A stretch of DNA of 64,000 nt from an uncultured Muribaculaceae bacterium (GTDB taxonomy: Bacteria; Bacillota_I; Bacilli_A; RF39; UBA660). Under the pieces are notes generated by a model. That model saw nothing but the letters and a program-made list of their open reading frames with translations, ran no database searches and had not been told where the DNA came from. How positions within the stretch are numbered: the first letter of the stretch is position 1; each line of letters starts with the position of its first letter. The DNA is taken from the NCBI GenBank assembly GCA_964447275.1, contig CAYURI010000003.1, positions 510 through 64,509 on the forward strand. The letters run 5' to 3'. The position numbers were made by a program, and so were the translations under genes. This document shows, piece by piece, positions 14,532 through 51,771 of this stretch.

Positions 14532-15521
14532 ATGAAATATATTTTGCAAAGAATTATTAAGATGGATTATAAAAATTTCTTTATAACAATTAAAAAAATT
14601 AGTAAAAAAACAAAAAAACCGGTTATTTTAATTTTTTTAGATATTGTCTACACGGGAATAAAATTTAAAGCTGGATACATGGATTATTATTTATTAAAGA
14701 TGTATGAAATGAACAATAAAGAAAAATCTACTTATTTAGTAAGAGGCAAAAATAATGAATTAATTGAAAAACTGAACAAAAAAAGTGATATCCATCTTCT
14801 AAATAATAAAATTGAAACCAATAAATTATTATCTAAATATTTAAAAAGAAATTGGTCTTATTTAGATAATAAAAATATTAATAAATTTATTCGTAATAAC
14901 CCTAGGTTTATTGCTAAACCAAGTAATGGTCAATGCGGCAAAGGAATTGAAATAATTGATACCGCAAAATTTAAAAATAGTGAAGCCATTTTAGCTTACC
15001 TAAAAGAAAATAAGCTTGATTTATTAGAAGAAATTATTAAACAACACAAGTTGTTAAATAAGATAAATTCTAGCTCAGTAAATACTATAAGAATAGTTTC
15101 TATATATAATAAAAAAGTTTTCTATGTTGGGGCTTGCTTTAGAATTGGTAACAAAAAATTTGTTGATAATTTTGAAAGTGGTGGAATGACAGCCAAAGTT
15201 GATGTTGAAAGCGGCATAGTTTTAAGCCCGGCTATTGATAAAGCTGGCAACGTTTATTATAGTCACCCGGTTACTAAAACTAAAATTGAAGGATTTAAAA
15301 TACCTTATTATAAAGAAGCTCTAGATTTAATTGCTGATATGGCTAAATTAGTTCCAACCATCAGATATGTTGGATGGGATATTGCCATAACTGAGAGCGG
15401 GCCAGTATTAGTAGAGGCTAATCCTTTGCCGGGTTCGCAAATAACCCAGATGCCTTATCCTGGTGGTAAAAAAGAAGGTTGTCTACCTAAAATAAATGCG
15501 GCGCTAAATTATAAAATATGA
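14532..15521 (+). CDS. ATP-grasp enzyme of the sugar-transfer-associated / alpha-L-glutamate-ligase-related type
   Basis: 329 aa, ATP-grasp-like central and C-terminal regions (FIAKPSNGQCGKGIEII; VGWDIAITESGPVLVEANPLPG). Own promoter TGCTATAAT at 14507-14517. Confidence 0.5.
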   Translation: MKYILQRIIKMDYKNFFITIKKISKKTKKPVILIFLDIVYTGIKFKAGYMDYYLLKMYEMNNKEKSTYLVRGKNNELIEKLNKKSDIHLLNNKIETNKLLSKYLKRNWSYLDNKNINKFIRNNPRFIAKPSNGQCGKGIEIIDTAKFKNSEAILAYLKENKLDLLEEIIKQHKLLNKINSSSVNTIRIVSIYNKKVFYVGACFRIGNKKFVDNFESGGMTAKVDVESGIVLSPAIDKAGNVYYSHPVTKTKIEGFKIPYYKEALDLIADMAKLVPTIRYVGWDIAITESGPVLVEANPLPGSQITQMPYPGGKKEGCLPKINAALNYKI

Positions 15522-16232: not shown

Positions 16233-16270
16233 GTATGTTATAATTGCTATTAGTTAACACGGAGGCCATA

Positions 16271-16987
16271 ATGTTAAAAATCATAATTGTTGAAGATGAA
16301 GAAGAGATGCAAAAAAGAATAAAGCTAATTGTAATGAAAGCTTTATTCTCTAAAAATATTGAATTTCAAACTTATATATTCAAAAATTATAATGAGGAAT
16401 TAAAAAAACTTATTAATGATAACTCCCAGCCAAAAATTTTTCTTTTAGATATAGAATTGAAAAGAAGCATATCAGGAATAGATATAGCTAATATAATTAG
16501 AAAAGAAGATTGGGAAAGTGAAATTGTGTTTTTAACGAATCATGATAAAATGTTCGAAAAAGTTTATCGAACGATATATAAAGTTTTTGACTTTATTGAA
16601 AAGTATCACGATTTTGATAATCGCCTTTTAAAAGTTCTGAAAATTATAGTGTCTAACGGTCATGATAATGCGATGCTAAAAATTACTAACAAGAATATGA
16701 CACTGCAATTATATTATAAAGATATTCTTTATATCACAAGAGATACCATAGAAAGGAAACTAATTATTTATACGACAACTAATAAGTTTTCTTTATTGAT
16801 GCCAATTAGTAAATGTTTAGAAAACCTTGATGGTCGCTTTAAAATGGTCCATCGCGCTTGTATAATTAATTCTGATCGTGTTGCAAAATATAATTGGAAT
16901 AAAAAGTCTTTTGTTCTTGAAAATGGTGCAGAAATATTCTTACTTTCTAAAAAATATAAAGGGGTGATACAAGATGATAAGCGTTAA
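16271..16987 (+). CDS. agrA: AgrA-like two-component response regulator (REC + LytTR DNA-binding domain). ATG 16271 with SD GGAGG; the track ORF starts at TTG 16244.
   Basis: Receiver domain (IIIVEDEEEM...FLLDIEL) and C-terminal LytTR-type segment (ITNKNMTLQLYYKDILYITRD...HRACIINSDRV). Confidence 0.75.
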   Translation: MLKIIIVEDEEEMQKRIKLIVMKALFSKNIEFQTYIFKNYNEELKKLINDNSQPKIFLLDIELKRSISGIDIANIIRKEDWESEIVFLTNHDKMFEKVYRTIYKVFDFIEKYHDFDNRLLKVLKIIVSNGHDNAMLKITNKNMTLQLYYKDILYITRDTIERKLIIYTTTNKFSLLMPISKCLENLDGRFKMVHRACIINSDRVAKYNWNKKSFVLENGAEIFLLSKKYKGVIQDDKR

Positions 16988-18275
16988 ACATGTTTTGCAG
17001 TTTTTATTTGTTCTGATTAACGAAGGATTGATTTTTTATTTTGTTAATAAAGAATTAGAGACTAGAATAAAACTTAATCTTAAAGGCATCATCATTATTT
17101 TATTTGCTTCGCTTCTGATATCAATAAATAACATGTGTTCTGCTTTTGAGTTGAGGCTGATTGGCAATTACCTAATTGGGTTGTTAATGTTTGTTTCCTT
17201 AAAAAACGACTTTAAAAAGTCGGCTTTGTATTATTCGCTAATAATGCTTTTTGGTGTTCTCTCTGAGTTATTGCTATCGATAATTTTATCAATCTTCTTT
17301 TCTAGCATTACAAACTTAAGCTTTTGGATACAACCATTACTAATTATAGTTACTTACTTAGTTTGGTTCGGTGGGTGGTTTTTGTTTATTTCATCAAAAC
17401 GGGTAAAATATATTTTAAACAAAATAGAAAATAGTATAAATAGTATTTTTAGAATTGAAGTCTTGCTTATAGTTCTGTTTTTTATAATTGATGTTGTGGT
17501 AGTAGAGCATTATTTCAATCTAAAGGATCATCTTCTACTTTTAGCATCAATAATAGCCCTAAATCTCTTATTTATTTTAATTTTTATAATTTTAAAAAAT
17601 CGTCTAAGATTAAAAACTTTAGAAATATCTAATAACTATTTAAAGAACAATATTGACTTATATGAAAGAATTATTAAAGACCATAATATTATGAAGCATA
17701 ACTTAATTAGTGATTTAATGATAATTAAATCGGTAGCAAGCAGAAAAAGCCAAAAAATTATTGACGAGAAAATAAAATCCTATAAAGAAGGTTATAGCTG
17801 GATAAGCGATATTAATGGGCTACCCGAAGGATTAAAAGGGCTTATTTGCCTAAAAATAGTTGAAGCTAAAAACTTTGGCGTAGAATTAATATCAGAATGC
17901 TCCGGAGTTTGTAATTATAATATATCAAAGAGTTTATCAGCAAAGATCTATCTTGATTTATGCGAAAAACTAGATATTTTAATTGATAATGCAGTAGAAG
18001 CAGCATCCTTATGCCAAACAAAAGTTGTTGAAATAACAGTTAATACAACTAAAAACAAAAAAGTCACTATTGAGGTATCTAACCCATTTTTAAATGAAGT
18101 TGATTTTTCTAAATTTGGCAAAGAAGATAACTCTACTAAAATGAGAAATAGTGGGTATGGGTTATACTACATTTTGAAAAATAAAAGCAGTAAAATAAAA
18201 ACCAAGTTTGAAATTATTAACGATGTTTATATAGCTAGGATAACTGTCGATATAAAAAATATAGCTAATAAATAG
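16974..18275 (+). CDS. agrC: AgrC-like membrane histidine kinase (HPK10 family)
   Basis: 433 aa. ~6 N-terminal TM helices. H-box MKHNLISDLMII resembles the AgrC FKHDY box. N/G boxes DNAVEAAS and GYGLYY. Overlaps the regulator stop, so it is an operon. Confidence 0.75.
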   Translation: MISVKHVLQFLFVLINEGLIFYFVNKELETRIKLNLKGIIIILFASLLISINNMCSAFELRLIGNYLIGLLMFVSLKNDFKKSALYYSLIMLFGVLSELLLSIILSIFFSSITNLSFWIQPLLIIVTYLVWFGGWFLFISSKRVKYILNKIENSINSIFRIEVLLIVLFFIIDVVVVEHYFNLKDHLLLLASIIALNLLFILIFIILKNRLRLKTLEISNNYLKNNIDLYERIIKDHNIMKHNLISDLMIIKSVASRKSQKIIDEKIKSYKEGYSWISDINGLPEGLKGLICLKIVEAKNFGVELISECSGVCNYNISKSLSAKIYLDLCEKLDILIDNAVEAASLCQTKVVEITVNTTKNKKVTIEVSNPFLNEVDFSKFGKEDNSTKMRNSGYGLYYILKNKSSKIKTKFEIINDVYIARITVDIKNIANK

Positions 18276-18279
18276 CTAT

Positions 18280-18387
18280 ATTCTTTCTGATATTGATTTT
18301 GGGCATTTTGGTTCATCAACAAAGATTAATACTGACCACCAAGGAAGATCTTCTGCCAAAGCAACAATATTGTTAACAATATTCATA
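18280..18387 (-). CDS. agrD: AgrD-like autoinducing-peptide precursor (36 aa), not in ORF track
   Basis: Minus-strand ORF MNIVNNIVALAEDLPWWSVLIFVDEPKCPKSISERI. SD AGGAGA lies 7 nt upstream. It starts 14 nt after the agrB-like stop. The C-terminal tail EPK..PKSI resembles the AgrD recognition tail (staphylococcal DEVEVPKEL). A candidate ring SVLIF precedes it. Confidence 0.55.
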
Positions 18388-18401
18388 AATTATTCTCCTT
18401 T

Positions 18402-18989
18402 CTAAAACCAACGATTAAAAAGTTGGTTTTTATTTTTTAAATTCTTGCCCAGTAATTTATATGTTAATGGGCAAACAAGTATAGCTTGATATAAAAGAGA
18501 TAAGAATATAGTTTCTTTCATAAGCCAATTATTACTACTAATAATAACTATTAAATAAAGGCAAACAATCAAACTGATTATTGCTTTTCTTTTTAAATTT
18601 TTATCTTTATTTAAAAGTGGAATGTTTTTAGTTGGCGCTGGAGCAAAGCTAACGATTATTAAAGCGGAAATGAAAGATCCATATATTAAAATAAAATTAT
18701 TAATATCAATTAAGCTACACATGAGAGGTATTATGTTATACATGATTAAACTAGTAATCCAACATTGTAAGTTACTATTAGCGTGAAGGCCGAATCCCAG
18801 TGCTCTCAAAGGAATCATTAAGAATATTAATAACATAACCGATTTCTCAATTTTTAATAAAAAAGATATGAAAATAATGACAGCCAGTTTAACTAAAAAA
18901 GTATATAAGCATTCTAAGGCAAACTTCAACTTTATGTTTTCAAAGCAATTTAATTTTTTTAATAAACAACCAATTATTTTATCTCTCAT
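18402..18989 (-). CDS. agrB: AgrB-like membrane endopeptidase (AIP-processing)
   Basis: 195 aa, ~4-6 TM helices. RALGFGLHANSNLQCWITS matches the AgrB catalytic His/Cys region. Confidence 0.7.
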   Translation of the reverse strand: MRDKIIGCLLKKLNCFENIKLKFALECLYTFLVKLAVIIFISFLLKIEKSVMLLIFLMIPLRALGFGLHANSNLQCWITSLIMYNIIPLMCSLIDINNFILIYGSFISALIIVSFAPAPTKNIPLLNKDKNLKRKAIISLIVCLYLIVIISSNNWLMKETIFLSLLYQAILVCPLTYKLLGKNLKNKNQLFNRWF

Positions 18990-19138: not shown

Positions 19139-19194
19139 TTGTGTTAACTAAGAGCAAATAAAGATGTTAAAAGTTATTTATATGGAGGTGTATT

Positions 19195-22586: not shown

Positions 22587-23682
22587 ATGGAACCAAGAGA
22601 ATTATTTAAAAAATATGAGGAATTAAGCAAAAAAATAAATGATCTATGGAGGTTACTTTGACTTAGACAATAAACTAAGCGAGGTAGCCATTATTAAAGT
22701 TGAAATGAGTGCTCCTGGTTTTTGGGATGATATTGAGAATGCTAATAAAAAAGCAGCAAGATTATCGCAATTAGAAAAAGATTTAAATAAATACCAAGTT
22801 TTATTATCAAGATTAGAAAACATTAAAGATATTCTACTTATCGAAGATCCTAGTTTAGTAGAAGAATCGTCTAAAGAACTAATAGAAATTGAAAAAGAAA
22901 TTGAAAGCCTGGAAGTAAAAGTTTACCTTGGTGGTAAATATGATAACACCGATTGTTATCTAGAAATTCATCCTGGAGCAGGTGGAACAGAATCTTGTGA
23001 CTGGGCTAATATGTTAAAAAGAATGTATTTGAGATTTTGCGAAAAGAATAATTATAAAGCTGAAATAATTGAGGAACAAGAAGGCGAAGAAGCAGGCATA
23101 AAAAGTGTTACTATTTTAATTAAGGGTGACTATGCTTATGGTTACTTTAAAGGCGAAAAAGGTGTTCATCGTTTGGTTAGGATATCACCATTTGATTCTA
23201 ATGCCAGAAGACATACTTCTTTTGCTTCAGTTACAATTACACCAGTTTTTGAAGACGCTAAAGAAGTCGAAATAAAAGAAAAAGATTTAAAAGTCGATGT
23301 TTTTCATAGCAGTGGAGCAGGTGGGCAAAGTGTAAATACTAGTGATTCAGCAGTTCGAATAACCCATTTACCAACTAAACTTGTAGTTAGCTGTCAAACA
23401 GAAAGAAGCCAACTCCAAAACAAGGAAAGAGCCATGGATATGCTCAAAAACAAACTATATGAATTAGAACTTGCCAAGCATGAAGAATTTATGAAAGAAT
23501 TAAAAGGCGAGAGTGCTAGTATTAATTTTGGTAGTCAAATTAGAAATTATGTTTTAGAACCATATACTTTAGTTAAAGATAGCCGTACTGGATATCAAAC
23601 TGGTGATGCCTTAAGGGTTTTAGATGGTGATATACTTAATTTTATGGAAGCTTATTTAAAGTTTAAGGAGAAAAATGAATAA
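22587..23682 (+). CDS. prfB: peptide chain release factor 2 with programmed +1 ribosomal frameshift (frame 0 from 22587 ends at TGA 22659-22661; frame +1 continues from 22660)
   Basis: MEPRELFKKYEELSKKINDLWRLL* is followed in the +1 frame by DLDNKLSEVAII... The slippery site is GGAGGttaCTTTGAC (SD-like, then CUU UGA C). GGQ motif SGAGGQSVN is present. Confidence 0.9.
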
Positions 23683-51611: not shown

Positions 51612-51771
51612 TAGACAAAAGGCTTAGATATTGCTATAATCTTCGTTGTATGACTGCTGAGAGGCGTGAGGTTGCTGACACACTAGGTTGAGTTGCTTAC
51701 ATCTTTCCTAATGTCAGGTTATTTGCGCGGAGCAAGTCTGTACTAGATATAGACGAAGGGAGGACATGAAA
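51612..51771 (+). promoter_or_regulatory. S10-operon promoter (TAGACA-17-TGcTATAAT) and ~125-nt relatively GC-rich structured leader
   Basis: -35 at 51612-51617, -10 at 51635-51640. The leader 5' end CUUCGU (51641-51646) is complementary to ACGAAG (51753-51758), immediately 5' of the SD GGAGG. An internal CUGACA/UGUCAG stem is also present. Confidence 0.5.

Follow-up and report, generated by a model that had tools for sequence, protein, structure and literature searches.

The 64,000-nucleotide stretch of DNA analysed here, referred to as the window, carries a complete agr-type module, in which a small gene encoding a 36-aa peptide lies directly after an agrB-like gene, and genes for an AgrC-like kinase and a LytTR regulator are transcribed towards this pair (Table 1). 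The product of the small agrD-like ORF reads MNIVNNIVALAEDLPWWSVLIFVDEPKCPKSISERI. A first-pass annotation had described this minus-strand ORF, and it was found as stated, with coordinates that needed shifting by one base from the 18280-18387 given before. The AGGAGA Shine-Dalgarno (SD) sequence with its 7-nt spacer was likewise seen, and the distance between the agrB stop codon (18402-18404) and the agrD ATG on the same strand was corrected from 14 to 15 nt. The AAAGGAG element of this SD is kept in the related locus L003, and SD-like motifs stand upstream of nearly all peptides of the wider post-agrB family described below. The ORF was confirmed to be a real gene, and its exact 36-aa sequence is present in a public protein collection (NCBI and Logan sources) as a called, unnamed gene product, as well as on two further contigs with identical neighbours. 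The leader before the serine comprises 17 aa, close to the earlier estimate, and the tail DEPKCPKSI is present. Six residues (S-V-L-I-F-V) rather than the five (SVLIF) counted earlier precede DEP, meaning that SVLIF does not adjoin the tail. By a crude calculation, the hydrophobic moment of the leader is near that of the S. aureus leader. The window leader is short and, unlike that of most Cys-type relatives, has neither an AxA site nor a Lys-rich N-terminus resembling a signal peptide.

Table 1 Features of the agr-type module in the window and peptides from related loci
Feature	Positions	Strand	Remarks
agrD-like gene	18276-18386	minus	36 codons and TAG stop; coding part 18279-18386
Leader M1-W17 of the agrD-like gene	18336-18386	minus	
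Ser18	18333-18335	minus	codon TCA
Predicted ring S18-V23	18318-18335	minus	
Follower D24-I36	18279-18317	minus	DEPKCPKSISERI
Shine-Dalgarno sequence AGGAGA	18394-18399	minus	7-nt spacer to agrD ATG, within the agrB-agrD gap
agrB-like gene	18402-18989	minus	195 aa, membrane cysteine peptidase/cyclase; Pfam PF04647, NCBIfam ArgB-like
AgrC-like sensor histidine kinase gene	16974-18275	plus	433 aa; convergent with agrBD
AgrA-like response regulator gene	16271-16987	plus	receiver and LytTR; PF00072, PF04397
Perfect 14-bp hairpin	18254-18286	both	encloses the abutting agrD and kinase stop codons; U-run on the agrD strand
Two exact copies of GTCTAAAAA	19107-19136	minus	21-nt start-to-start spacing, 118-147 nt upstream of agrB ATG
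17-nt motif copy TTGCTCTTAGTTAACAC	19141-19157	minus	upstream of agrB
17-nt motif copy TTGCTATTAGTTAACAC	16244-16260	plus	between TATAAT (-10) and SD of the regulator gene
PWWS peptide, locus L003			MNIIALIEDLPWWSVLIFVDEPKCPKVISKKI
PWWS peptide, locus L086			MNLIANVLAIAGDLPWWSILVFIDEPDCPKFLLKEI
PWWS peptide, locus L087			MISKITSADNDIPWWSILIFIDEPRCPKSLLKKLN
PWWS peptide, loci L088/L089			MNNIIKVLADGDIPWWSILVFVDEPECPQSILERI
Thr-type example, locus L012	4086-4196		directly after agrB

The AgrB-like protein matched PF04647 with 87.7 bits (E=8.3e-25; cut-off 23 bits) and the ArgB-like model with E=1e-27, and a hydropathy scan revealed several hydrophobic segments. Its residues His69 and Cys76, which we take to be the counterparts of S. 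aureus His77 and Cys84, were invariant in alignments of 11 and 82 homologues, Listeria AgrB included. The same type of scan showed the N-terminal ~210 aa of the kinase to be polytopic, and the C-terminal part is a GHKL domain (PF14501 HATPase_c_5, E=8.7e-8); residues 237 and 242 are the candidate phospho-acceptor histidines. An orthologous kinase gene occupies the equal position in L002, L005, L086 and L088. The matches of the kinase and regulator pair to PF14501, PF00072 and PF04397 were all above cut-off. The best NCBIfam match of the regulator was quorum_RR_AgrA (3.3e-10), far under the cut-off of that model. Since the pair scored far below the cut-offs of the staphylococcal AgrC and AgrA equivalog models, both proteins are regarded as relatives, not orthologues, of staphylococcal AgrC and AgrA. 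Translation of the regulator likely starts at ATG 16271 behind a GGAGG rather than at TTG 16244 of the mechanical ORF, and the L086 orthologue, at 238 aa, agrees with the ATG start.

Beside the agr module lies an ATP-grasp gene of the 'sugar-transfer associated' type (14532-15521, plus strand; PF14397, E=9e-53), an arrangement conserved in L086 with the run L31, ATP-grasp, rpiB, DUF1146 and regulator. Elsewhere in the window, an RF2 (prfB) +1 programmed frameshift site was recognised (22588-22670, plus strand). The frame-0 ORF MEPRELFKKYEELSKKINDLWRLL ends in GGAGG-TTA-CTT-TGA-C, and after the frameshift reading goes on into a 347-aa ORF (22639-23682); TGA is therefore a stop codon in this organism.

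The agrD and kinase-gene stop codons abut at 18275/18276. The fold of positions 18248-18296 on the minus strand had a free energy of -14.4 kcal/mol (z=-5.8), and none of 200 shuffles was equally stable. The 14-bp hairpin at this site is probably a bidirectional terminator; it escaped a consensus terminator scan, as only two G-C pairs are found in its stem. Based on the 15-nt gap, the SD of its own that agrD possesses and the hairpin terminator after agrD, agrB and agrD are probably co-transcribed. Upstream of agrB, the GTCTAAAAA pair was the only zero-mismatch match in the window, and with up to three mismatches three matches were found against 0.65 expected. In the AgrA sites of S. aureus, 9-bp direct repeats occur as a pair with a periodicity of 21 bp, an architecture shared by the GTCTAAAAA pair, which from its sequence is a candidate LytTR (AgrA-type) binding site. 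An alignment showed the agrB-proximal copy to be conserved in L003, L086, L087 and L088; exact direct repeats upstream of agrB were not found in the relatives, in which the conserved proximal box was visible by alignment only. The repeats also fall within the upstream region of the divergent csp gene. For the 17-nt motif TTGCTnTTAGTTAACAC, exactly two matches were found in the 64-kb window against 0.05 expected by chance, and the regulator-side copy is conserved in L086. Both the GTCTAAAAA repeats and the 17-nt motif are candidates for regulatory input, the latter as an operator or a shared leader. Rfam detected no RNA near the agr locus, and no RNAIII was recognised at this locus. The sole Rfam family reaching the gathering score in the window was the S10-Clostridia ribosomal protein leader (51651-51756, plus strand, 39.3 bits).

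Alignment to AgrD family models, the check suggested along with the first-pass annotation, yielded nothing: neither Pfam AgrD (PF05931) nor NCBIfam TIGR04223 matched the window peptide, even at E<=10, and the three other PWWS peptides tested gave no match at the same threshold. The S. aureus AgrD control, whose sequence was validated only by its strong matches to both AgrD models, scored 33.2 bits on TIGR04223 and 112 bits on the Pfam model, on which members of the family described here reached at most 14 bits; the Pfam AgrD model is essentially staphylococcal. Relatives were collected by an AgrB-profile scan with one genome per species. As a result, 80 loci were obtained; the genome of the window was absent from the set, and the best match was 42% identical. 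Almost all of these loci come from metagenome-assembled genomes of animal or human gut, labelled uncultured Bacilli, Tenericutes or Mollicutes. Nearly every one has an ORF of 32-43 aa with an SD directly after agrB, and these ORFs have the common register [C/S/T]-x5-[D/E]EP, in which the nucleophile column is occupied by Cys (64 relatives), Thr (12) or Ser (4). On TIGR04223 (cut-off 19 bits), several Cys-type members at related loci passed with 23.5-27.1 bits, the Thr-type peptide of L012 reached 19.2 bits, and a second Ser-type 15.1 bits.

A family HMM was built from 78 distinct post-agrB peptides, leaving out the window's own clade. When all small ORFs of the window in six frames (520 ORFs of 20-90 aa) were searched with this profile, the agrD-like ORF alone was matched (18.5 bits, E=4.8e-5), the next best small ORF scoring 3.7 bits. 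In the alignment, residues 19-32 pair with model positions 25-38, so that Ser18 corresponds to position 24, where the Cys column lies. The peptide has the AgrD-type layout, with the leader at residues 1-17, Ser18 on the Cys column and the acidic follower DEPKCPKSISERI containing a conserved Pro. Its location directly after a bona fide agrB, its membership of a post-agrB ORF family found at over 80 related loci and in part passing TIGR04223, and the specific match to the family profile together show that the 36-aa ORF encodes an AgrD-type precursor.

To the window peptide, four further PWWS-type peptides were added by an exhaustive phmmer search, a scan with a degenerate DNA pattern and a look-up of the closest AgrBs. 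The phmmer search returned two true relatives, P0015 and P0017; the match P0018, a long repetitive protein, was dropped, and P0014, P0016 and P0019, long proteins with multiple matched stretches, were treated as spurious. The DNA pattern for PWWS..DEP led to two contigs, and a metagenome scan with the PWWS-clade AgrB alignment gave no match. The serine, encoded by TCA and TCT codons, is invariant in all five syntenic peptides (window, L003, L086, L087 and L088/L089). The PWWS...DEPxCP core is invariant across these orthologues as well, and the ring shows only conservative changes (V/I). AgrB identity to the window amounts to 66% in L003, 45% in L086, 48% in L087 and 37.5% in L088/L089, and the kinases of the clade are 46-47% identical to that of the window. 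As far as the contigs reach, synteny covers hpf, csp, agrB, agrD, the convergent kinase and regulator genes, DUF1146 and rpiB, and in L086 it goes on into the ATP-grasp gene and L31. Between the window and L003, agrD differs by an in-frame 12-nt indel, three synonymous and five non-synonymous changes, all of them outside the identical core. The earlier suggestion that Ser takes the place of the ring-forming Cys holds well, with Ser18 on a column occupied by Cys in 64 of the 80 relatives and retained in every PWWS locus. These comparisons support the ORF as the precursor of a Ser-type, probably lactone, autoinducing peptide (AIP).

Threonine (ACT/ACA) was found at the nucleophile column in 12 species-level genomes (L008, L010, L011, L012, L013, L018, L020, L024, L025, L035, L040 and L058), as in the sequence MEFLASLLSGAATAASTSNR-T-VWLVL-DEPNCPEELI. 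Among these loci as fetched, 11 of 12 have the convergent kinase gene and 10 of 12 the regulator gene also; together with the second Ser-type loci, nearly all keep both. A neighbour-joining tree of AgrB showed the PWWS clade to be monophyletic, with the second Ser pair (L052/L075) elsewhere, and placed the 12 Thr-type loci in one clade with three Cys-types nested inside; as a simple tree of roughly 200-aa proteins, it leaves uncertainty about the deeper branches and about exactly how many switches took place. Because the Ser and Thr types form clades in this tree, the oxygen nucleophile is regarded as an inherited state that has been maintained and that arose several times, not as a lesion. 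AgrB residues His69 and Cys76 are invariant in the Cys, Ser and Thr types. No AgrB residue covarying with Ser or Thr was common to all three O-nucleophile clades, and only clade-specific changes were seen. Among 82 homologues, AgrBs of the PWWS clade depart from near-invariant positions (APADT to APAPT or, at the same residue, E/G; R123 to I/K; R131 to N; G24 to A/S/K), the window AgrB itself having APAPT, R123 to I and R131 to N. These deviations are absent from the Thr clade and the second Ser clade.

The follower of the Ser and Thr types carries a Cys at its fifth position (DEPxCP) in 19 of 19 peptides (Cys28 in the window), a position held mostly by Met in the Cys-types. As neighbouring Cys-type clades have this Cys too, it is probably a clade trait tied to the leader type without a signal-peptide-like N-terminus, not a mechanistic requirement. 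Cys28 was considered as the true nucleophile and rejected: it aligns with the Met of the conserved MPK/CPK follower motif, and the Thr-type relatives end five residues after it, which would leave AgrB no leaving group.

Taken together, we favour the reading that an uncultured gut-associated bacterium of the Bacilli (Bacillota) has an agr-like quorum-sensing module whose AgrD-type propeptide is encoded by the 36-aa ORF and gives rise to a Ser lactone, most likely with a six-residue ring, with a probability of roughly 0.7. According to this proposal, the leader, short and amphipathic (residues 1 to roughly 14), would bring the peptide to the membrane, where AgrB, acting through His69 and Cys76, would cut off the acidic, Pro-containing follower DEPKCPKSISERI and keep the Val23 C-terminus as an acyl-enzyme at Cys76. 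Attack of the Ser18 hydroxyl on the acyl-enzyme would then close the lactone, a macrocycle in which six residues [S-V-L-I-F-V] most likely take part. The leader would be removed by a peptidase, and part of the P-W-W motif probably stays on the product, since its invariance suggests retention as an exocyclic tail. The AgrC-like kinase would sense the peptide and signal via the LytTR regulator, which in turn would probably exert feedback at two promoters, those of agrBD and of the regulator's own operon.

The ring size is a point on which the first-pass annotation, with its five-residue SVLIF ring, needs revision. Its remark that DEPKCPKSI resembles staphylococcal DEVEVPKEL was well founded: the family follower DEPecpesl aligns to S. 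aureus DEVEVPKEL gap-free, and the S. aureus Cys falls one column nearer the cut site. The window register is S18...D24-E25-P26...P29, with the nucleophile six positions before the follower and the conserved second Pro at +11, not +10. In characterised five-ring AgrDs the first follower residue comes five positions after the nucleophile, and the follower has the form x-[E/Q]-[P/V]-x-x-P, as in S. aureus (CDFIM followed by DEVEVP) and in C. thermocellum (ring S25-F29, follower from Y30 with P35; PMC5322536). The AgrD of C. acetobutylicum (CVLVTL followed by YEPKMPEELL) can be aligned gap-free to the family HMM, its Cys falling on the nucleophile column. A six-membered ring was predicted for it (PMC10301443), and complementation and reporter assays have been run with R6T0, the tail-free synthetic six-ring AIP (PMC10301443 and its supplement). 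Because the window register equals that of C. acetobutylicum AgrD and is offset by one column from S. aureus Cys28, a six-residue ring is predicted, and cleavage between Val23 and Asp24, giving [SVLIFV], is the better prediction. Five-residue rings are by far the commonest AIP macrocycles (PMC12312760; PMC10301443), and the main alternative is accordingly a cut between Phe22 and Val23 that would yield [S-V-L-I-F] and make Val23 the first follower residue. We consider it unlikely, given that the follower matches S. aureus DEVEVPKEL residue for residue, which implies a cut directly before D, that the whole C-x5-[YD]EPxxP register agrees with that of clostridial AgrDs forming six-residue rings, and that the extra residue is present in 80 of 80 family members. 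The computed ring-only [M+H]+ values are 560.344 for SVLIF and 659.413 for SVLIFV, a difference of 99.068 Da.

On general chemical grounds, a hydroxyl is less nucleophilic than a thiol. AgrB might process the peptide into a signal other than a lactone, either a linear one formed by hydrolysis of the acyl-enzyme or, after an O-to-N acyl shift of the ester, a cyclopeptide closed head to tail (homodetic); the homodetic form would require leader removal right at Ser18. Tail-free thiolactone AIPs do rearrange to lactams in Ruminiclostridium cellulolyticum, and the same study explicitly left the fate of tail-free Ser lactones unresolved (PMC8251862). Against this stand the Ser lactones detected by LC-MS/MS in C. 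thermocellum (PMC5322536), the invariant PWW before the Ser, which suggests a retained exocyclic tail that would block the O-to-N shift, and the strict conservation of the Ser while flanking leader residues vary, a pattern not easily accounted for with a functionless hydroxyl. A non-lactone product is thus rated as distinctly improbable. Least credible of all, and highly improbable in our view, is a decaying or silent agr locus in which a Cys-to-Ser change was inactivating, or a small ORF that is untranslated. The failure of the curated AgrD HMMs to match the peptide would fit such decay. However, all four genes are intact, the Ser and the whole core are kept in five lineages at 37-66% AgrB identity with synonymous variation of the Ser codon, and the indel relative to L003 is in frame. 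Furthermore, the ORF has a strong SD and the only family-HMM match in the window, and independent Ser and Thr clades keep complete modules.

Ser-lactone AIPs, a rare variant, are documented from S. pseudintermedius, from E. faecalis as GBAP with its nine-residue ring, and from C. thermocellum (PMC12312760, PMC5322536, PMC8251862). The sequences are RIPT[STGFF] in S. intermedius/pseudintermedius, QN[SPNIFGQWM] for GBAP and a tail-free pentapeptide lactone in C. thermocellum, and a Ser lactone NSA[SSWVA] has been predicted for C. difficile AgrD2 (PMC12312760, PMC5322536). Like these, the window peptide has Ser in place of the ring Cys of an AgrD-type propeptide and is paired with an AgrB/FsrB-type enzyme (PMC12312760, PMC5322536). 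The comparison with the S. intermedius group drawn earlier is apt for the Ser itself and does not extend to shared descent; the window Ser has an independent origin, as the nearest clade relatives have Cys, and reflects a separate Cys-to-Ser switch. The window system further differs in its predicted ring of six residues, not five or nine, and in its invariant, putatively exocyclic Trp-Trp motif.

Clostridia are known to have AIP rings of six residues and to divide agr between agrBD and agrCA operons (PMC10301443, PMC12312760). C. acetobutylicum AgrD shares with the window peptide the order of nucleophile, five residues and [Y/D]-E-P-x-[M/C]-P, and its agrBD unit also lies apart from the kinase/regulator unit. 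In contrast, the window has Ser instead of Cys as the nucleophile, a leader of 17 aa versus about 33, convergent operons with the regulator gene ahead of the kinase gene, and no LanM-like gene after the locus, and its host belongs to an uncultured gut Bacilli lineage, not to Clostridium. With S. aureus agrBDCA (AgrD-I ...YST[CDFIM]DEVEVPKELTQLHE), the window module has in common the three-part propeptide with the gap-free DEVEVPKEL/DEPKCPKSI pairing, the His/Cys pair of AgrB, an HPK10-like kinase and a LytTR regulator. It departs from S. aureus in its Ser, in one extra ring residue, in gene order and orientation, and in that the Pfam AgrD model gives no score for the window peptide as opposed to 112 bits there. 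Whereas staphylococcal agr is hypervariable, the AIP core here is almost invariant between species. The window element combines known variations, namely the Ser, the six-residue register and the split, convergent module.

The locus adds a predicted Ser-type agr signal from uncultured gut Bacilli, a lineage in which no AIP is known to have been characterised. The curated AgrD models miss the window peptide, and AIP mining by TIGR04223 or PF05931 consequently under-counts such systems. No precedent for a threonine-type AIP was found in the literature. Tentatively, and with the balance of probability somewhat against it, we suggest that the nucleophile switched from Cys to oxygen at least three times (Ser in the PWWS clade, Ser in L052/L075 and Thr in 12 genomes), that all products are six-residue macrolactones, and that the PWW[S(V/I)L(I/V)F(V/I)] core acts as an inter-species signal. 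If so, the Ser form would be without precedent as a six-residue Ser-lactone AIP, as would the Thr form as a threonine-lactone AIP, and the near-invariant core would be shared rather than strain-specific, despite divergence of AgrB and the sensor to about 40% identity. The predicted product is concrete enough for synthesis and a mass-spectrometric search. Moreover, with the AgrB scaffold and the register held constant, the natural series of Cys, Ser and Thr nucleophiles in this family would offer a handle on oxygen versus sulfur nucleophiles in AgrB-type cyclases, and could also show whether threonine lactones exist.
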